Below are positions 339-46,361 of a stretch of DNA of 46,731 nt, piece by piece. The stretch lies in the IMG/VR virus record IMGVR_UViG_2529292726_000019. One strand, 5' to 3'. The notes beneath the pieces are model-generated. The model was not told the origin of the DNA, ran no database searches, and saw nothing but the letters and a program-made list of their open reading frames with translations. This DNA comes from a virus (Duplodnaviria > Heunggongvirae > Uroviricota > Caudoviricetes). Position numbers and translations under genes: made by a program. Positions within the stretch are counted from its first letter, which is position 1. Each line of letters starts with the position of its first letter.

Positions 339-679
339 TTAAGCCCGGCAATTTCACGATCTTTGCTGGCAATAATCGTCTCACTTTTGTTACCGTCATC
401 AGTTTCTTGAGTCTCGCTCACCATATCCAAAGTCGCTTGCAACTTATCAGCTCTCTCTTTTTCAGCAAGGTAATGAACACCGAAATGGTGTGCCAAAGCT
501 ACAATCTGAGTTGGCTCTTCAAAGGTGGAATTAAAATTAAGTATTGTAAACAGTCTCTCAAATATGGAAACGTCTTCTATTCCTCGAAGAATGGCTAACA
601 TTTTGACCAGTTCATTAGCATCCATTTCTTCGAATAAGGCGTTTTGTTCATCAGCTATTGCTTTGCATTTCTCGCACAT
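326..679 (-). CDS. hypothetical protein (117 aa)
   Basis: ORF preceded by the conserved start region (AAGGAAAACAC-ATG) and the upstream AAACAAGTTGTTTT motif. Its 3' end abuts the IS terminus. Confidence 0.5.
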   Translation of the reverse strand: MCEKCKAIADEQNALFEEMDANELVKMLAILRGIEDVSIFERLFTILNFNSTFEEPTQIVALAHHFGVHYLAEKERADKLQATLDMVSETQETDDGNKSETIIASKDREIAGLKSSL

Positions 680-976
680 GTGTTTTCCTTAATGCTTAAA
701 CAAGTTGTTTTCTTATTGGTTTTATTGTGATGTGGCATAAAAGGGGAGCAAGCTAAACGTAAAGGTGCAAACTCTCTATTTCGGTCAACGAAATACAAGG
801 GCCATTTGGCCCTTGTCATTAACACTTTGCTTTACGAACTAACGGATAAGCGAAGTAGATCGCCAAACCAATGAGGACGCCATCAGAAATGACAGACATC
901 ATCTTTCCCGTAAAATCCACCAACACCGCCATCACCAGAAGAGCAATGACGATCACAAGCCGGAATCTCTCAAGCA

Positions 977-1402
977 TTAGAGATAAGCATCCAGTGACAA
1001 CTGAAGCGCCTGGGCGATCTTTTTCAGTGCCTGCTCTTCTTGTTCACCAATGCCGTCCTGATCGGCAATATCAAGGCACAGACACAGAACATCGACCGCC
1101 TCTGGAGTACCCGCAATATCAGACAGCTCACGAATAGCTTGTGCATTAGCAGAACGAGGGGACGCTTCGTAACGAGCACGGATATTGGCGCTCATTTGGG
1201 CAATCTCACCAGCAAACGGAGAAAACGCAGGCAGAGCTGCAATTGTTTTCTCAAGAATGGAAATTTCCTTTGCGTCGCATGTGCCATCGGCATAGGAGAT
1301 CATGTACGCGCCCCACACGGTGGCTTCAACCGCATCTCGGTTCTCCATTTTTTTGACCTCGATAACAGCTTTACGAGTTTTCTTTTTGAATAAACCTAAC
1401 AT
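977..1402 (-). CDS. hypothetical protein (141 aa), possibly TerB-like
   Basis: ORF with conserved start region and upstream AAACAAGTTGTTTT motif. The TerB-like call is a weak impression from an acidic helical sequence. Confidence 0.5.
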   Translation of the reverse strand: MLGLFKKKTRKAVIEVKKMENRDAVEATVWGAYMISYADGTCDAKEISILEKTIAALPAFSPFAGEIAQMSANIRARYEASPRSANAQAIRELSDIAGTPEAVDVLCLCLDIADQDGIGEQEEQALKKIAQALQLSLDAYL

Positions 1403-1495
1403 GTGCTTTCCTTTTGTTATTTGTTAAAACAAGTTGTTTTCTAGTTACATGAATTGCTTACGAAAAGACGGTCAATGCATATGCACTAACAACCG

Positions 1496-3509: not shown

Positions 3510-3764
3510 TCATTGTGATTGATTATTTTCTCTACCATGTAGTTGAACATTCAAGGCAAACACCTCATTGATCAACTCACCTAAAAGCTGTTCAACAAGT
3601 TCGCGATGCTCGCCAAGATGCAAGCACTTAATTGCCCATTCGTACAAGTTGAAAGCCTGCTCACGATCTTTCATCATTTCACGAGCCTGGGCCAGAAAAT
3701 CGCTCTCTACGAGCGCAACGACATTAGTCGGGTATGACATGTTGGTTTCCTTAAAGTGGTTCAT
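3510..3764 (-). CDS. hypothetical protein (84 aa)
   Basis: ORF with a start-region-like sequence upstream. Confidence 0.45.
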   Translation of the reverse strand: MNHFKETNMSYPTNVVALVESDFLAQAREMMKDREQAFNLYEWAIKCLHLGEHRELVEQLLGELINEVFALNVQLHGRENNQSQ

Positions 3765-4519: not shown

Positions 4520-4585
4520 CTTCTTTCTCGATAGGTAAGTAAATACCTATTTTTGCATTTGATTTTATGTCTGGCAATCAAATAA

Positions 4586-9034: not shown

Positions 9035-10165
9035 TCACACCGCCACTGGAACCTTGATCCACGGTAGAGGGGCATAGCCAAGAATAAGAATCTCGTCCCA
9101 TTTGAAATCATCCAGCTCAGACCATTCATTAGGGAATATAACGACCGGATCTGAATGCTCTGGAGCCTGTCGTTGCATTAGCTCACACACACCTTCCATG
9201 TGGTTGTTGTACAAATGCACGTCAAAGCCAAAATGCACAAATGCACCGGCCATGTGACCCGTAATCTTCGCGAGAAAATGAGTGAGAATGCCATAGCCAG
9301 CAATATTGAATGGCATACCAACAAAAGTGTCTACGCTACGCTGTACGAGGCAGGAGTTGAGGATGCGTTTGGGGATTCCAAGTTCATCCAGTTCAGTTTC
9401 AGTAACACTGCCGTCCATCTCCAGATCGTATAGCATCTTGGTGTAGATAGACTCATAACCGAGGCGACTGTGTTGAAGACCAATGTCAGTTGCCATCGTT
9501 AAACGGGTTTCAAAATCCAGTTCACGACTCCACAAAGAGAAGACAAAGTGGCAAGGGGGCAGTTTCATATCCTCAAGCTCGCCTACGTTCCATGCGTTAA
9601 GCATGATGCGACGATCGGTAGGGTTCGTGCGCAGTGTATCGACAATACGCTGTAGCTGATCGATTTCACGGGACAGCACTACGCGATCTTCACTGATACC
9701 CAGGTATCCCTCGACTTTGTACCCGCGTTCACGGAAAGTAGCGATCTTGCTCAGATATTCACTATGGCTCACGATGCGGGTATCTTCCCATCGACGCCAC
9801 TGCTTACCGTAAACCGGCCCCAAATCGCCATTCTCATCGGCCCATGCATCCCAAATCTTAACGCCGTTATCCTTGAGAAATTGGATGTTGCCCGTGCCTT
9901 TCAGATACCACTCAAGTTCGACAAGCAGTGGCTTAAGATTTACCGCCTTTCCAGAAATAAGCGGCACAGTCCCACCAGTAAGCATGTAGTAAGAGGGAAC
10001 GTAGCAGGTGCTTAAAGTACCAGTGCCTGTGCGATCATCAGCCTGCACGCCGCTTTTAAGCACCGTCTCAATAACTTTTGCATACGATGCGTTTGTTCCC
10101 TGACCGTTCGTATGCTCACGATTCAAAAGGAGTGACACAAAAACCTCACAAAGATAAGTAACCAC
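9035..10165 (-). CDS. thyA: thymidylate synthase
   Basis: DDRTGTGTLS, LKPLLVELEWYLKG, GDLGPVYGKQWRRW and catalytic-Cys region MKLPPCHFVFSLW. Confidence 0.85.
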   Translation of the reverse strand: MVTYLCEVFVSLLLNREHTNGQGTNASYAKVIETVLKSGVQADDRTGTGTLSTCYVPSYYMLTGGTVPLISGKAVNLKPLLVELEWYLKGTGNIQFLKDNGVKIWDAWADENGDLGPVYGKQWRRWEDTRIVSHSEYLSKIATFRERGYKVEGYLGISEDRVVLSREIDQLQRIVDTLRTNPTDRRIMLNAWNVGELEDMKLPPCHFVFSLWSRELDFETRLTMATDIGLQHSRLGYESIYTKMLYDLEMDGSVTETELDELGIPKRILNSCLVQRSVDTFVGMPFNIAGYGILTHFLAKITGHMAGAFVHFGFDVHLYNNHMEGVCELMQRQAPEHSDPVVIFPNEWSELDDFKWDEILILGYAPLPWIKVPVAV

Positions 10166-10222
10166 TTATTCATTGCGTGAGTTTACATTTATTGAGAGAA
10201 CAAGACCAGACAGATAAAAAAA

Positions 10223-11256: not shown

Positions 11257-12399
11257 TTACAGGTCTGCAAACTGGCTTAGAGAAGCCTTATCCACGGTAG
11301 AATCGATCTGACCTACCAGATATGTGCTTTGCTCTGCCTCTTGTGGTGCAATTTGCAGTGTGTCGGTTAACAACCACTTGTTCATCCAGACCAGCGGATC
11401 AGTGGTAACTTCTGGAAATAAAGCCTTCAGGCCAAGACGATTCATAGCCAGATTGGTGCGGTATTTTACATAGGTCTTCAGAATATCCGCGTTTAAACCA
11501 ATCATCGAACCGTCTTTGAAGAGATAGTCTGCCCAGTTCATTTCTTGTTCGGCGACTGATTTCATGGTGTCGCAAATGACGTTTTCTTCATCAGCAGCAA
11601 TCTCTTTCCACAATAAACCTTCGCGACCGGTACGCATGAAGCGGATCATGCGTTCAGTTCCTTCGCAATGCAGAGCTTCATCACGGGCAATAAAGCGCAT
11701 AATTTTGGTGTTACCCTCAAGCAACTTCCGTTCACCAAAGGCAAACGTACATGCAAAACTTACGTAGAAACGGATCGCCTCAAGCGCATTAATGGACACC
11801 AACGTGCGGAAAAGCTGACGATGCAAAGGGTATGGCCCCCAGCCATATTCATTTACGTACAGACGCTCAAATTCCTTCTCACCTAACGACTGGCGCTCGC
11901 AGGTCATCCCATAAAGCCTGTCATATTCAGCAGAGATACTGATCGCTCGGTTGATGATTTCTTCATCCGTAACAATACCGTCAAAAACAATGCTCGGATC
12001 GTCCACCATGCCACGAATAATGTGGGTGTAGCTGCGGCTATGGATAGTCTCAGAGAAAGACCACGTTTCAACCCACGTTTCCAGTTCAGGAATAGAGATA
12101 AGCGGCAGCAGCGTTGCATTTGGACTACGTCCCTGAACTGAATCGAGTAACGTTTGATAACGGAGATTGCTCAGAAAAATGTGACGTTCGTGGTCCCGCA
12201 GCTTCGTGTTGAAGTCGATACGATCGCTCGAAATATCAACTTCTTCCGGCCGCCAGAAGAAAGACAATTGACGTTCAATCAACTTTTCAAAATCACGGTA
12301 TTTTTGCTGATCGTAACGTGCCACGTTGACAGATTGTCCGAGGAACATAGGCTCTTTGGTTGCATCATTAGCACCCAAACGGAACGTTGAATATGACAT
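11257..12399 (-). CDS. nrdB: ribonucleotide reductase class Ia beta subunit
   Basis: FFWRPEEVD, diiron/tyrosyl-radical region and overall length; conserved start region upstream. Confidence 0.9.
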
Positions 12400-12481
12400 G
12401 TGTTTTTCCTTTTTCTTTTTTGGTGCGTTTAAACAAGTTGTTATCTTATGTGTTTAAACAAGGCTTACAAATCAAAGAGAA

Positions 12482-18123: not shown

Positions 18124-18352
18124 ATAACACCTTTGATACCGTGTGTTAGCTTTTGACCTTCTTTCAATCTGAACTCCGTATGCGCCGGGAAGGATCTGCG
18201 CCTCAATACGCCTTTTCTGGTTAACCTTCCAAGATAAAACGCTACGGGATTTCCTTGTGGCGGGTAGGGCTTGTGAAACATCACCGTCTGGCCTCGTTCA
18301 AGTCTTTTCATCGTGATGGCAAAGTCTCGAAAGCTCCCATAACGACTTTGCC

Positions 18353-19438
18353 TCACACAGCCTCCGAACTCTCCGCTTCGGTGAGGATTTCCTGACACAA
18401 AATATCCAACTTGCTCAGATCAAATCCGCCGTCAGTATCGTGGACAATCTTGCAATAAGCAGATACCGACTCTCCCAGGCTATCGATTTTGCTGGTTTCC
18501 GTTGTGCTTGCTGTCCCTTCCATCATTGATGACTTACGGATGAAGTTGCACACGACACCTTTTGCACCCATTGTTTTGAGGATGTTCTGGTACTTAATGC
18601 CTTCTTCATCGTTCTCAATTACGGCGCGGAAACGCACGTAGTTGCCGCGAATTTGGTCATCGGCAACATAATCTTCCAGGTTAATGAATTTAGGCGCACT
18701 GGTTTCGTAGTGACTGAAACTGCCGTCCGGGTTTACGATCATGTAACCAGCCAGAGATCCAACATCTCCCCAATTTTGATGGGTCAGCGCACCGACACTG
18801 ATAACTCCAGGAATGACCTCTTTGTGGTTGTGGTAATGCCCACTAAGCACGAGACGAAAGCCGATATCCTTTAACTCCTGCGCATCGATACCGACGTCAG
18901 GCATTGTTGGAATGGCTTTGTTAATGGATGTATGGATAACAACGTCATGATTATCACCTTCTACGCTCTTACGTAATGCTTTCAGATCGCTGATAAGCTC
19001 TGCATGATTGTTACGCCAGCTAATCAGGTGGACAGTCACATCACCAATTTTTATTGAGTGTGGGCGTTTGCCACATACGATTACCACGCCGATAGAACTC
19101 AGCGATGCTGCTGCGTTGGCGCTATATACTGAATCGTTGGTTTCAAGATCGTGATTACCGGCCAGCATTACTACTGTCAGATCAAGCTCGTTGATAATCC
19201 ACTTGTACGTTTCAGTTACGTAATGCAAAACAGAAGGGGACACAGTTCCTCGGACGTGAAATGTATCACCGGCAACCAACATGTACTTACAACCGGCCTT
19301 CTTCATGGCGATGGCTGCTTCTTTCGTTGCTTCCAACTGTATTTCAAGTCTGGAGTTAAGCCCCTCTGCGTTCGTCGTGGAGAACGCATCCCATTTGTGG
19401 TAGTGGCAGTCAGAAATGACGCCGTATGGCAAAGTCAT
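18353..19438 (-). CDS. sbcD: SbcD/Mre11-like nuclease
   Basis: Calcineurin-like phosphoesterase motifs GDTFH, GNHD, GHYH; conserved start region upstream. Confidence 0.8.
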   Translation of the reverse strand: MTLPYGVISDCHYHKWDAFSTTNAEGLNSRLEIQLEATKEAAIAMKKAGCKYMLVAGDTFHVRGTVSPSVLHYVTETYKWIINELDLTVVMLAGNHDLETNDSVYSANAAASLSSIGVVIVCGKRPHSIKIGDVTVHLISWRNNHAELISDLKALRKSVEGDNHDVVIHTSINKAIPTMPDVGIDAQELKDIGFRLVLSGHYHNHKEVIPGVISVGALTHQNWGDVGSLAGYMIVNPDGSFSHYETSAPKFINLEDYVADDQIRGNYVRFRAVIENDEEGIKYQNILKTMGAKGVVCNFIRKSSMMEGTASTTETSKIDSLGESVSAYCKIVHDTDGGFDLSKLDILCQEILTEAESSEAV

Positions 19439-19692
19439 GTGTTTTTCCTTTGTGGTTATTTTGATACAAATTTTAAGAGCAATGAGAAGGTAAACAACTA
19501 TGCATAACGGTATGTTAGGAATGAAACGAGCGTCTTAATATACAAAATTTATAAGTAAGTATATACCTATTTGTTGTGACGCAACTTTGCTTGTCTGTAT
19601 AACTAAAAATAAGACAGGATCACTGTAGAACGCTATGAGAGCTATTTTGAGGAGGCGTAGATTCTATCTACGCCAATATACGATCTGGAGGG

Positions 19693-23095: not shown

Positions 23096-23371
23096 TCACT
23101 CAAAAGTGCTGATGCTTAAAATACGCTCAAGATGTTCAGCATCTTCATTACTGATTTGTTGAGTCTCTTCTACGTACCAACAGTTGCCGTTATGCCAACA
23201 AACACCATCATCATCAACCATCACTGAATCAGCGTCATGACCTGTATATTCAACAAGAGTACGCTGGATCAGCGCGTCAGTTTCTTCATCGTTAAGGCCA
23301 TCGACTTTGACCATAAAAAGCGGAAACACGTCATAGACAGTGCTGGTAACGATTCGAACTAAAACTCTCAT
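23096..23371 (-). CDS. hypothetical acidic protein (91 aa)
   Basis: ORF with conserved start region. Confidence 0.45.
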   Translation of the reverse strand: MRVLVRIVTSTVYDVFPLFMVKVDGLNDEETDALIQRTLVEYTGHDADSVMVDDDGVCWHNGNCWYVEETQQISNEDAEHLERILSISTFE

Positions 23372-23426
23372 GTGTTTTTCCTTTTGTGGTTAGTGTTTAC
23401 TTATTTTGTTAGTTATGAATAGGCGA

Positions 23427-23852: not shown

Positions 23853-23906
23853 GTTTTCTTATCCTTTTAAACAAATTGTTTTCTTAATAAGATAATTGCG
23901 ATAAAA

Positions 23907-24777: not shown

Positions 24778-24978
24778 TTATTTCCCCTTTGCTTTGATTA
24801 ATGAGTTGATAAACTTACGACCAGCAATAAGACCGATTACAGGAGCACCAAAACCAACGATAACTCCAAACATGACGGCTAAATCACTCTTGGTAGAAAT
24901 CAGCGACGGAACCAGTAAACCGTAGATGAGAGTCACTGAAAGGCCTGTGGCTACTGCCAATAGATAGATTTTGATCAT
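24778..24978 (-). CDS. small two-helix membrane protein (66 aa), co-transcribed upstream of the SPFH gene
   Basis: Hydrophobic throughout; conserved start region and a palindrome upstream. Confidence 0.5.
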   Translation of the reverse strand: MIKIYLLAVATGLSVTLIYGLLVPSLISTKSDLAVMFGVIVGFGAPVIGLIAGRKFINSLIKAKGK

Positions 24979-25045
24979 GTGTTTTCCTATGTGGTTGTTA
25001 TGCGAAAATAATAAGTAAGCACTTATATATTTTCAAGAGATAAAA

Positions 25046-38561: not shown

Positions 38562-39116
38562 ATGCACTTGCATAAGTTGGTTACACCTGGTTTGGCTTCA
38601 TTGCCGGGTGATCTGTCATATTTAGATATAGACTTTGTTTTCTCTGGCAATGAAGCTCGTAAGGCTAGATACCGTTTAGTCTTTTGCCCTCCTTCTTTAG
38701 ATCCTGTTGCCGCAGAAACTATGCATAATATGTTAGGGGCTGATGTTTATGGGTTGTGTGTATCTGTCGTTAGTTTTGTGGACATGATTCAACTTGACAG
38801 GCAGCAAGAACAGCTCCAGAATGTCGCTCTTGGAGCGGAAGAGCCAATTAACGTATTTGCCAAACCCGAAGGGTCTTTTAATCTTACTTTAGGTGAACTT
38901 CAATACCTTTACGGTACTTTAGTTGACTTAATGCTCAAAGTTGCCGACAATGAAGGCATACAGATTTTATTCTTTGCGGCAGAACGCGAAGAACTGATGG
39001 CCACATACAAGAGATATGTGAAGAGATTTACACAAGAGCGTGGCCTAACTTATTTAAATGACGGAGCTTCCTATGCGATACGAACACAACACTACCCAAA
39101 ACAAAGGGAAGATTGA
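38562..39116 (+). CDS. hypothetical protein (184 aa)
   Basis: Plus-strand ORF followed by a terminator. Confidence 0.45.
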   Translation: MHLHKLVTPGLASLPGDLSYLDIDFVFSGNEARKARYRLVFCPPSLDPVAAETMHNMLGADVYGLCVSVVSFVDMIQLDRQQEQLQNVALGAEEPINVFAKPEGSFNLTLGELQYLYGTLVDLMLKVADNEGIQILFFAAEREELMATYKRYVKRFTQERGLTYLNDGASYAIRTQHYPKQRED

Positions 39117-40813: not shown

Positions 40814-41591
40814 AATTCAGCACTGCCAGTATTTATTACTCAACAGTGCCAATCGCGACGGTTTAGTTTCTGCCAGGAAACGCACCGCTACTTGCACTTT
40901 TCGTTAGTGCCAGACGCTTTCGACTTCGCTCAATAGTAGAAGGCAAAATCTTTAAGTAGATGATGTTTCTGAGGACAGCACCTACTTTGTAATTTATACA
41001 ATGTGATGTATGGAATCATTTGTTGTGAAAACAGGCACCAATGGCAACAGTGGTTAAACCTACACAACAATCCTGTCTTCACAACGTTGAGGCCACTACT
41101 CCGATTGAATGTTTGCCCAACATGTTACATATCAACGCTCGCCGGTATCTCTGTGAATAGAACCTTAGAATTGATAAAAATGTAATGGCCTCAACGTTAT
41201 GTGCTGGCTAACCATACCAGCCGGGCTACGTCGCCGCTTTTTAACCCAGTATAAACGACATAATTGAACAAAATGACGTAACAGGATGGGCGGTCAGTGG
41301 CTAAGAATCCGGGAGTCATATGGAGTTGAAAATATACCAACCGCCCATTCTGTTACTTCATCGGAGGGAACATGAATGTTCCCTCCTGCGTTCTGCAATC
41401 ACACTCGCTCAGTGTGTCCCATTTCGGTAACGAGGCTGGAAACTGACCTCGCTGGTGTTTGGCTTATTAGGCTACTGCCAGATAGACTTCTTCGTTTGCA
41501 CTTGTATTTAAGTTCAAACAGTCGCGTCTCAACGAAAACAAAGTCATCTTATACACAAAAGATAAGTAAGTAAATACTTATCAATATGTTT

Positions 41592-41882: not shown

Positions 41883-42031
41883 TTTCTAACCTTTGTTTCA
41901 TGAACTACCCGATACACACGCTTTCCGATGCATAGTGTTTTGGTTTTAAGTTCCTGCTTAATTAAATCACGACAGATGCCGAAGCCAATAAGGAAGCCAC
42001 CCATAAAAGCTAATGAGATGTATGGAATCAT
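41879..42031 (-). CDS. small membrane protein (50 aa, below the ORF-track cutoff), paralog
   Basis: Hand-translated MIPYISLAFMGGFLIGFGICRDLIKQELKTKTLCIGKRVYRVVHETKVRK; ATGA-coupled to the 96-aa gene. Confidence 0.3.
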   Translation of the reverse strand: MIPYISLAFMGGFLIGFGICRDLIKQELKTKTLCIGKRVYRVVHETKVRK

Positions 42032-43725: not shown

Positions 43726-44204
43726 TGTTGTTTTACCTCCATATGTTGATCGATTTGCTCATGTGTTTCTTTTGTTGTTTCTTCAAGCAACGCCGCATAC
43801 ACGTCAGTGATCGCTGTTTGTGATGTGGTGCTCTTCTTAACCATGCTATTAATCGTTACACTGTCACGTTTTCGTTTTAAAGTTCTGGCTTGTTTATTCC
43901 GTTCTTCAACCTCCTTAATGAGCGCGGTCATATCTTCGAAATACAGAGATTCTCCTTTACGAATCTCTTCAACCATCATTTTTAACGCCTTGCATTTGCC
44001 TGCTTTGATAGCGGTTGCGCACGACTGGAATGAAGTTCGAGGAAGACGGTTTTCTTTGAAGGCAAGAATGGTGTGCTGGCAAACGGAGTAGCTGCAATAT
44101 GCCGACTCACCGTTTATCTTTACTTCCTCACAACGAAGTGAATAACCATTATTTCCTGAAATAGAGGGGATTTTTGACAAATCAGCTTTCACAACTACCG
44201 CCAT
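43722..44204 (-). CDS. hypothetical protein (160 aa)
   Basis: ORF with several Cys residues; stop/start coupled with the ligase gene. Confidence 0.5.
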   Translation of the reverse strand: MAVVVKADLSKIPSISGNNGYSLRCEEVKINGESAYCSYSVCQHTILAFKENRLPRTSFQSCATAIKAGKCKALKMMVEEIRKGESLYFEDMTALIKEVEERNKQARTLKRKRDSVTINSMVKKSTTSQTAITDVYAALLEETTKETHEQIDQHMEVKQQ

Positions 44205-45117: not shown

Positions 45118-46299
45118 TTATGATAGAGCCTTAATGCCCAAAACCTTGCTTTGCAACTCCAACTGCTTGGTATACGGTTTTGCCCGATAATAGGCTTTGA
45201 TGATTTGCTCTGGCGTTGCATCGCCCGGGTCGAGTCCTTCCTCACCCAAACACGCAACTTTGACATTAAGACCGATACTGGTCAGTCGCCTGGCTGCGGC
45301 CATAGTGTTGCGTATAGCTTGCTTTTCACTATCCCACATCATGATCACATTACGTAACCCACGCGCCTTGAGCGTCAGGAACGCGCCTAACTGATCTTCT
45401 GCATCCTGAGTGGTGTTACCAGATAGATGCATCCCGAACGTTCCTATTGGTTCCACGTAATCACGTAATGTTTCTTCGTCAAAAATAGCTCGTTTAACCC
45501 CCATAACATCGAACGCCCCCTCACAGACAACTACAGTCTGTTTGCCGACTGCATTATGGCCGTTGTAGAGAAACTTACCTGAAGCTGGAAGTTGCATAGG
45601 AAAGAGGTAGCGGCGTTCTGCTGTACCGGTAATGTCTCGTCCCTGAAATGTCTTCATTACCCCATCCAGATCGTAAACCGGTATCAGTATTCGCATATCG
45701 AATATCTGTCCTTTAACCTGATCTGTATACGGATCTACATAGGCGTGCTTGCCTTCGACGCAGTATCGTAGGTCAAAATACTTTGCCATTTCAGGCGATA
45801 TGTTTCGTTCAACCAGATAGTCTGGAAGACGGCCATCTATAGGAAGCTCGTAATGACGAGGGAGTGCAACTGGCCCCTCTAACTCGACTGTGCTTGCAAG
45901 CACTAGCTCTTCTTTCTTTGGTGCCCACCCCTGGGAAAGAAGGGCGTTCTGCACATATTCCTCGAACTGTCGTCGTGATTTGCCGCTGTAGTGCTTGAGG
46001 AAGACCAGCTTATTGAACTGAATCTCTTCGGGATGATCACCAGCGAAGCATTTACCGACACCACTGGTCAGATTGAAATATACCTTCCAGTTGGAGCTGC
46101 CACATACCGGACACTCCTTGATATTCACTTCATGACCGCGAGTACTCACGCCTCCACGTCGATAAACGATACCTTCAGTATCCAACCATTGTTCAAAATC
46201 TAATTCGGTAATTAGCTCTTTCAGCTCGCTCACGATAATTCCACTTTTAACAGGCAATATTGTGACCAACCTAAATGTTGATATAACATAAAGGCTCAT
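45118..46299 (-). CDS. DNA primase (DnaG-like, zinc finger plus Toprim)
   Basis: CPVCGSSNWKV zinc-binding motif and Toprim-like VVVCEGAFDVMGV...MMWDSEKQ. Start moved to ATG 46299 (MSLYV) because it carries the conserved start region. Confidence 0.7.
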   Translation of the reverse strand: MSLYVISTFRLVTILPVKSGIIVSELKELITELDFEQWLDTEGIVYRRGGVSTRGHEVNIKECPVCGSSNWKVYFNLTSGVGKCFAGDHPEEIQFNKLVFLKHYSGKSRRQFEEYVQNALLSQGWAPKKEELVLASTVELEGPVALPRHYELPIDGRLPDYLVERNISPEMAKYFDLRYCVEGKHAYVDPYTDQVKGQIFDMRILIPVYDLDGVMKTFQGRDITGTAERRYLFPMQLPASGKFLYNGHNAVGKQTVVVCEGAFDVMGVKRAIFDEETLRDYVEPIGTFGMHLSGNTTQDAEDQLGAFLTLKARGLRNVIMMWDSEKQAIRNTMAAARRLTSIGLNVKVACLGEEGLDPGDATPEQIIKAYYRAKPYTKQLELQSKVLGIKALS

Positions 46300-46361
46300 G
46301 TGTTTTTCTTTTGTGGTTTGGCAAAAGAAAAGTTGTTTCACCAATGAATCAAGCGTGGAGG

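Follow-up and report, generated by a model that had tools for sequence, protein, structure and literature searches.

A near-invariant translation-initiation region shared by DNA-metabolism genes of SSU5-like phage-plasmids, and a candidate FljA-family reader

The start region and the genes that carry it

The window analyzed in this work, i.e., the whole 46,731-nt stretch of IMG/VR record IMGVR_UViG_2529292726_000019, is part of an SSU5-like phage-plasmid, exhibiting 99.0-99.6% identity to the Escherichia phages CMS-2020a, Cyrano and PhiR41_1 and ~77% identity to Salmonella phage SSU5. It represents the reverse complement of Cyrano at ~33.1-82.8 kb, and nearly all of its genes therefore lie on the minus strand. 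Gene starts were taken from the annotation of Cyrano, whose 108-kb genome contributed 123 genes that were assessed for the element described here. This element is a short sequence which recurs at gene starts and comprises a Shine-Dalgarno (SD) core, the spacer AAACAC and the ATG itself. Its carriers include the genes for the helicase, the primase leader, a cobS-like ATPase, dnaE, SSB, sbcD and nrdB, together with several small genes. The motif is a genuine, lineage-specific and selectively maintained translation-initiation region of DNA-metabolism genes, most of which are preceded by a gap. The copies and their relatives in the window are the following.

677..697, minus: copy at the 117-aa open reading frame (ORF) 326-679, TTAAGGAAAACAC-ATG
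1400..1420, minus: variant copy at the TerB/TciA-like gene (977-1402), AAAAGGAAAGCAC-ATG
3738..3752, minus: weak relative AAGGAAACCAAC-ATG before the ATG at 3740, not a true member of the class
12397..12417, minus: nrdB copy, AAGAAAAAGGAAAAACAC-ATG
19436..19456, minus: sbcD copy, the sole perfect 21-mer, ACCACAAAGGAAAAACAC-ATG
23369..23389, minus: copy at the gene of a 91-aa acidic protein without assigned function (ORF 23096-23371)
24976..24996, minus: copy at the gene of a 66-aa membrane protein (ORF 24778-24978), ACCACATAGGAAAACAC-ATG
28444..28464, minus: copy at the gp32-like SSB gene, CACAACAAGGAGAAACAC-ATG
32625..32645, minus: dnaE copy, AAACCAGAAAGGTAAAAACAC-ATG
34041..34061, minus: variant copy (AAACGC) at the cobS-like AAA+ gene
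43760..43780, minus: orphan copy with an exact AAACAC-ATG (43760-43768) and no GG core
46297..46317, minus: copy at the short primase leader frame, ACCACAAAAGAAAAACAC-ATG

Nine exact copies of AAACACATG occur in the window, all on the minus strand, compared to 0.68 expected, and none of 100 shuffles reached this number; the 15-mer AAGGAAAAACACATG, allowing up to three mismatches, gave 13 matches versus 2.26 expected. Eight of the nine exact AAACAC-ATG copies are located at gene starts (679, 12399, 19438, 23371, 24978, 28446, 32627 and 46299), and variant spacers appear at start 34043 (AAACGC, cobS-like) and at start 1402 (AAGCAC), the latter in a gene whose product contains a TerB domain. A core of AAGGA, GAGGG or AAGGT is positioned 6-8 nt before the ATG at 10 annotated starts and thus qualifies as an SD sequence. 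Throughout Cyrano, 10 of the 11 copies of AAACACATG are found at gene starts. A motif frequency no higher than that of an A-rich SD consensus would have spoken against the proposal of the earlier note on this DNA. This is clearly not the case, as AAACAC occupies positions -6 to -1 in 10 of the 123 genes, where 0.18 would be expected from position-specific base frequencies (P ~5e-15) and 0.04 from genome composition. The motif is therefore real, and it is tied to the coding strand and to the start codon.

The recurrent start motif described in the earlier note holds for AAACAC-ATG, directly upstream of the ATG on the minus strand, and not for the long form that was quoted as its general sequence. 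The full ACCACAAAGGAAAAACAC-ATG, described there as recurring nearly unchanged at ten starts, matches only four sites in the window at up to three mismatches. The ACCACA portion is present only at 19438, 23371 and 46299, and the quoted 18-mer is found in full at just three genes. The plus-strand text which had been assigned to 12397-12420 belongs to the sbcD copy, and these positions actually read CATGTGTTTTTCCTTTTTCTTTTT. Among the starts listed as weaker copies, 23852 retains a weak similarity and 3764 has no copy: the weak AAGGAAACCAAC-ATG serves the ATG at 3740, which is in frame with 3764 and at which the gene begins according to the Cyrano annotation. The gene identities proposed from the sequence (nrdB, sbcD, gp32-like SSB, dnaE, cobS-like AAA+ and primase) match that annotation.

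The carriers in Cyrano are all located outside the structural and lysis block. Of the 25 genes for structure and lysis, among them that of the major capsid protein, not one uses the motif, which weakens the idea that it marks a high-expression class. A gap of at least 50 nt precedes 12 of the 13 Cyrano carriers (P = 0.006), and the carriers are therefore probably translated independently; many of them follow a terminator-like hairpin. Their start regions are also significantly less structured, with a mean minimum free energy of -9.1 kcal/mol versus -14.3 kcal/mol for the other genes (P = 3e-4), and contain more unpaired bases. The lower degree of structure is in line with the main rival to a regulatory role, whereby the motif is a constitutive, unregulated ribosome-binding site (RBS) cassette of good quality, spread by duplication or recombination among operon-leading genes and kept for efficient initiation. 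Such a cassette would be expected to have the canonical SD and spacing observed here, and its A and C residues cannot pair with one another, so that the segment is unable to self-fold. Moreover, the carriers are mostly cistrons which need their own ribosome recruitment, and the copies of Ead and Eae share 22 of 23 nt, first codons included, which suggests duplication. An unregulated cassette is thus a serious contender, to which a sizeable minority of the probability is assigned.

The copy at the primase has a particular arrangement. The motif-headed ATG opens a short, poorly conserved leader frame of 16-23 codons (46231-46299, minus strand). In the window, in Cyrano and in the Klebsiella quasipneumoniae plasmid pKqq_SB1124_3, this frame runs directly into that of the primase as an in-frame fusion. 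In SSU5 (35837-35908) and in Klebsiella phage pJN2-26 (77226 onward) the leader is a separate ORF of 22-23 codons; its stop overlaps the primase start in SSU5 (ATGA), and it ends 4 nt before the primase start in pJN2-26. Since the conserved primase N-terminus (SELKEL...) is preceded, by eye, by a poor SD-like sequence, translation of the primase appears to be coupled to the leader frame. Even as a mere RBS cassette, the motif would still be useful as an annotation aid, which corrects both the primase start and start 3740 and flags operon-leading genes.

Constraint on the spacer

The comparison covered three SSU5-like elements (SSU5, pJN2-26 and the first 100 kb of the divergent plasmid pKqq_SB1124_3) and two distant syntenic relatives, namely a 50-kb stretch of Pseudomonas phage nickie, which carries the replication module, and the Aeromonas caviae plasmid pKAM329_1. 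Selection was assessed in 12 orthologue sets from Cyrano, SSU5 and a Klebsiella relative, aligned at the ATG. Identity among orthologues reaches 87-100% at positions -6 to -1, compared to 40-60% between -40 and -13, while third positions of codons show ~50-60%. Each spacer position contains 1.5-2.1 bits of information versus ~0.8-1.1 in the SD core (-11 to -8), with 1.5 at the adjacent A at -12 and no more than 0.2 past position +4. The earlier proposal that conservation extends beyond the SD is therefore strongly supported.

The AAACAC hexamer is kept in ~30 of 33 orthologous sites, and it remains unchanged where the SD varies among orthologues (AAGGA, GAGGG, AAGGG, AAGGT). In nrdB, the spacer is constant, whereas the AAGGA of the SD is replaced by GAGGG or AAGGG in the orthologues (cagagggAAACAC-ATG in SSU5 and caaagggAAACAC-ATG in pJN2-26). 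The sbcD copy is preserved in both of these genomes with a 1-nt variant of the spacer (aaaagACAC, aaaatACAC). Upstream of cobS the intergenic DNA cannot be aligned, yet AAGGAAAAAC(A/G)C-ATG is retained, and both SSU5 and pJN2-26 have AAACAC at this site. The divergent pKqq_SB1124_3 carries an identical AAAGGAAAACAC-ATG at ~17 gene starts, and the SSB leader is near-invariant as a whole in 80 related viral contigs, whose proteins share 77-100% identity. Judging from these alignments, purifying selection acts more strongly on the spacer than on the SD, and the spacer is the most constrained part of the region. As the spacer is not constrained by pairing between the SD and the anti-SD, something else probably reads AAACAC-AUG.

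Such strictness speaks against an unregulated RBS cassette. Many A-rich spacers would be equally good for initiation, yet a single hexamer is kept more strictly than the SD itself, and the most highly expressed class, i.e., the capsid and tail genes, never uses the motif. The distant relatives bear on the same point. Both nickie and pKAM329_1 share the module of helicase, primase, cobT/S, dnaE, SSB, exonuclease, recombinase, sbcCD and nrdAB, in the same order as SSU5 in nickie and partly rearranged in pKAM329_1. Their start regions are varied, and no spacer hexamer occurs more than twice among the 63 genes of nickie or the 71 genes of pKAM329_1. The stereotyped region thus characterizes the enterobacterial SSU5-like clade and not these genes as such. 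That the relatives express the same module from ordinary, varied starts also speaks against an unregulated cassette.

A further alternative is a recombination linker or mobile regulatory cassette, whereby microhomology at gene starts allows early-region genes to swap in and out. Relatives indeed carry different accessory genes behind the motif, for example at the Eae position in Cyrano versus SSU5. Extra motif-headed genes occur in pKqq_SB1124_3 at 18342, 22717, 48354 and 65635, and the phage-plasmid encodes its own recombination proteins, according to the Cyrano annotation. The orphan copy (43760-43768) fits this picture as well. It is located within the 3' end of the gene preceding the ligase gene and opens an ORF of only 9 codons (19 in Cyrano and 12 in SSU5), while the equivalent site in pKqq_SB1124_3 starts a real 156-aa gene with the motif; the orphan may thus be the remnant of a former gene start after gene loss. 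A certain likeness also exists to the T4-type promoter-stem-loop cassettes, which are likewise short regulatory repeats at many starts in the plastic early region of a large phage genome. The T4-type cassettes, however, consist of a promoter and a hairpin, whereas in the present case it is the ribosome-binding region that is repeated, and conserved core genes are among those headed by it. At Eae, the only replacement that was inspected, the breakpoint does not coincide with the motif but falls upstream of it, and 15-20 nt is short for homologous exchange. A linker would also leave unexplained the exact abutment to the ATG and the retention of the motif by nrdB, sbcD and ssb in all lineages. 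This explanation is consequently considered improbable.

Candidate readers and upstream elements

On balance, the evidence leans slightly towards the motif being read by something beyond the ribosomal anti-SD. The earlier note had compared the motif with the control exerted by RegA in phage T4, where early genes of replication and nucleotide metabolism share the sequence from SD to AUG, as they do here, and are repressed coordinately by one small RNA-binding protein. The carriers are, by their inferred timing, early genes and match this class of targets, so that the comparison is useful as a functional analogy; it does not extend to the sequence or to the protein. RegA sites are degenerate, rich in A and U and continue beyond the AUG, whereas the present motif is rich in A and C, varies very little and stops at the AUG. 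A search for a RegA homologue in the phage-plasmid was negative, as none of 50 unannotated Cyrano proteins gave a PF01818 hit at E <= 0.01, the remaining proteins being otherwise annotated and unscanned.

A shared post-transcriptional regulator of the motif genes, as originally suggested, is nevertheless plausible, and a protein of the FljA family, with predicted tandem Sm domains, is its concrete candidate. The gene CYRAN_114, annotated as a transcriptional regulator and located outside the window, encodes a full-length match to PF03614 (FljA family; E = 1e-80), the C-terminal part of which also has a sub-threshold match to Hfq. The structure model of the protein comprises two tandem Hfq-like Sm domains, and this predicted fold supports RNA binding in general. 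Homologues are present in CMS-2020a, SSU5, pJN2-26 and pKqq_SB1124_3, i.e., in every SSU5-like element examined, whereas nickie and pKAM329_1 have neither the FljA-like gene nor the stereotyped start region. In a set of 50,697 phage records, the 12 SSU5-like ones were the only source of full-length family matches, and two short fragment records (2-5 kb) contained partial hits of low identity (35-47%). In PLSDB, the family occurs in 835 plasmids versus 827 for the SSB homologue, with near-identical genus breakdowns, and ~345 of its carriers are Klebsiella plasmids. Klebsiella pneumoniae is classically non-motile and non-flagellated and has no flagellin. In this host, therefore, the FljA-like gene needs a target other than host fliC. 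In published RNA-seq data of LF82, CYRAN_114 is transcribed in the lysogen at ~18 fragments per kilobase per million (fpkm) and up to ~15-fold higher in other conditions, an increase that it shares with the putative repressor and the integrase. Transcription of the motif genes remains near background at 7-13 fpkm.

Salmonella FljA binds the 5' leader of fliC mRNA and blocks its translation (PMC4122451, PMC2652032). The two systems have in common the PF03614 protein and a start region, AUAAGGAAAAGAUC-AUG in fliC, with the same SD and spacing as the motif. They differ in the number of targets, of which a single one is known for FljA and 10-17 would exist in the phage-plasmids, and in the proteins themselves, as those of the phage-plasmids share only ~40% identity with chromosomal FljA. 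Hfq provides a further parallel, as its distal face binds (ARN)n sites at the RBS, and the Sm-fold candidate would likewise bind an A-rich single-stranded segment of the RBS and thereby repress translation. The candidate is, however, predicted to be a tandem-domain protein and not a homohexamer of single domains, and no small RNA (sRNA) partner was found.

Taken together, the motif is best interpreted as a class-specific translation-initiation region which probably acts as a shared RNA operator as well, its candidate reader being the FljA-like protein, an interpretation to which we give a probability of roughly 0.4. On the mRNA, the element comprises the purine-rich SD core (AAGGA or variants), the near-invariant A/C-only spacer AAACAC and the AUG, with an A/C-rich ACCACA 5' of the SD in some copies. 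One trans-acting factor would tune or shut off translation of the whole gene set via this shared operator, and an FljA-like protein positioned over SD, spacer and AUG would occlude the ribosome. During the plasmid-prophage state, the replication genes may in this manner be kept silent. Of the potential readers, the FljA-like tandem-Sm protein ranks first, although the link is circumstantial and its identification as such is doubtful. Similarly doubtful is the fuller proposal that the motif is an FljA-family RNA operator controlling a regulon of 10-17 lytic genes of replication, recombination and nucleotide metabolism, whose translation is silenced in the plasmid-prophage state, and that Salmonella FljA is a domesticated single-target offshoot of the phage protein.

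Several observations weigh against this interpretation. The A/C-only spacer is also expected from plain selection for an unstructured RBS, and the identity of the copies could stem from common descent of a small cassette. No co-variation was detected between motif and FljA-like protein, in agreement with an unregulated cassette: the motif is unchanged in the Klebsiella sublineage, where the protein has 33-43% identity and even its N-terminal EVWPRDY block is lost. Their co-occurrence amounts to a single phylogenetic event, one clade versus two outgroups, and is statistically weak, and the start region of the FljA-like gene itself has no motif. Finally, the resemblance of the fliC leader, AUAAGGAAAAGAUC-AUG, to the motif is limited to AAGGAAAA. 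This core is also present in the leader of fljB, which is not a target (AAAAGGAAAAUUUU-AUG in the fljB-fljA operon of Atlantibacter), so that the similarity does not demonstrate a shared specificity, and alignment scores failed to separate fliC from fljB leaders. A resemblance specific to the fliC operator is therefore not favoured by the alignments. The two leaders do diverge upstream of the SD and in the 4 nt preceding the AUG, which is compatible with, but no proof of, a family that reads the spacer.

Host factors are alternative readers, in particular Hfq or CsrA. The motif contains three ARN triplets (AGG-AAA-AAC), one GGA and two overlapping ACA (-4 to -2 and -2 to +1), as read from the sequence, and could accordingly be a target of Hfq, of CsrA or of an ACA-specific mRNA interferase such as MazF, whose cut would fall between the SD and the AUG. 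The distant Aeromonas relative pKAM329_1, moreover, has an Hfq gene of its own beside the helicase gene. None of Hfq, CsrA and MazF, however, requires the exact AAACAC. The leaders contain, by eye, a single GGA each and are predicted to be unpaired, lacking the second GGA and the hairpin presentation typical of CsrA/RsmA sites. Other phages of the same hosts are not known to carry the motif, which is a further argument against a host factor, and a role of this kind is regarded as very unlikely. The Hfq homologue of pKAM329_1 (53059-53376, minus strand; L215:3059-3376) is a single-domain protein with a long basic N-terminal extension, encoded immediately upstream of the DnaB-like helicase gene.

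Additional candidates were considered and rejected. The search for a trans-encoded phage antisense RNA or sRNA with a conserved seed to AAACACAUG revealed only motif antisense or non-conserved sites, host sRNAs being unsearched. The leader of terS (Cyrano 90-135; pJN2-26 38640-38683; outside the window) contains CUCUGUGUGUUUUAGAGGG, which adjoins an inverted repeat. The leader's UGUGUUUU is complementary to the AAAACACA part of the motif, but it occurs in Cyrano and pJN2-26 and was not found in SSU5, and is probably unrelated. The 91-aa protein, whose gene has the best motif copy, is unlikely to bind RNA as an autoregulated repressor, being strongly acidic (by eye) and without a Pfam hit. The annotation of CYRAN_64 as an ASCH RNA-binding protein received no support from Pfam at E <= 0.01. 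The start region of Cyrano gene 111 resembles that of fliC; this is attributed to chance, as the likeness is not conserved in SSU5, pJN2-26 or pKqq_SB1124_3. Pairing of ACCACA or AAACAC with 16S rRNA beyond the anti-SD is regarded as no better than chance.

The DNA upstream of the motif contains two recurrent palindromes, the positions of which in the window are given below.

698-710, 1427-1439, 12431-12443, 23869-23881, 36267-36279: AAACAA-N-TTGTTT palindrome, ~23-38 nt (by eye) upstream of start codons
2319-2332, 4536-4549, 10155-10168, 19556-19569, 23390-23403: TAAGT-N4-ACTTA palindrome
25012-25025, 28536-28549, 34107-34120, 41567-41580, 41947-41960: TAAGT-N4-ACTTA palindrome, continued

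The first is a 13-bp palindrome with the extended consensus aAGAAAACAAnTTGTTTAA (5 hits versus 0.25 expected in the window). It precedes at least 10 Cyrano genes, with or without AAACAC, often right behind a terminator-like hairpin, and looks like an operator or an unusual promoter for a dimeric DNA-binding protein. The copy of the motif at 677..697 is situated directly downstream of one such palindrome, AAACAAGTTGTTT at 698-710. The second palindrome (longer form ATAGGTAAGTnCTTAyCTAT; 10 hits versus 1.3 expected in the window) is also found in Cyrano upstream of portal, nrdA, thyX, dam and parB. Upstream of the gene of the 66-aa membrane protein lie a terminator-like hairpin (25066-25046) and a good promoter of the sigma-70 type, TTGAAA-17-TATTAT (25036-25008). 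The palindrome at 25012-25025 occupies the spacer of this promoter, a position typical of a repressor operator.

The motif could in principle be a DNA-level signal of this kind, i.e., a promoter element or an operator recognized by a DNA-binding regulator, and not an RNA signal. The region is rich in other recurrent operator-like palindromes, and AGGAAAACAC is loosely similar, by eye on the leaders, to AGAAAACAA, the left arm of AAACAA-N-TTGTTT. The motif itself, however, is asymmetric and always on the coding strand, and it contains a canonical SD. Its distance to the ATG is zero, whereas that to the promoter-like elements and palindromes upstream is variable (~23-38 nt by eye to the palindrome centre). 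The upstream elements also vary by carrier and include AAACAA-N-TTGTTT, TAAGT-N4-ACTTA within a sigma-70-like promoter and a sequence that appears similar to the C1 operator of P1. The motif thus does not depend on which promoter or operator lies upstream. A DNA-level signal is accordingly the least probable of the explanations considered, with only a marginal chance of being correct.

Two further leaders have features of their own. Upstream of sbcD, ATTGCTCTTAAAATTTG (~19470-19490, minus strand) overlaps a possible -10 element (TAAAAT, by eye) and appears to resemble the asymmetric operator of the P1 repressor C1, ATTGCTCTAATAAATTT. The SSB leader (28470-28500, minus strand) contains a small GCGC-loop-GCGC hairpin with a varying loop (AUA, AAA, ACA, ACG or ACC), and this hairpin in a near-invariant leader is reminiscent of the autoregulatory leader of T4 gene 32.

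Meaning for the SSU5-like phage-plasmids

Phage-plasmids of the SSU5 type are very common in clinical Enterobacteriaceae, with over 800 plasmids in PLSDB, including those of Yersinia pestis, and one homologue resides on a 106.7-kb contig of Salmonella Typhi. Their gene regulation is essentially unstudied, and no account of the present motif was found in the searchable literature. A strictly conserved, shared initiation region would define a class of co-translated genes. One short RNA motif, together with one candidate protein, would also provide a handle on how the replication machinery is kept silent in the plasmid state or switched to the lytic state. If the FljA-like protein is indeed the reader, the phage-plasmids would possess a multi-gene translational regulon under a tandem-Sm protein, and thereby a post-transcriptional layer of immunity. 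A function would also be provided for a gene that is conserved even in non-flagellated hosts, and the repressor of flagellar phase variation would have its origin in a phage.

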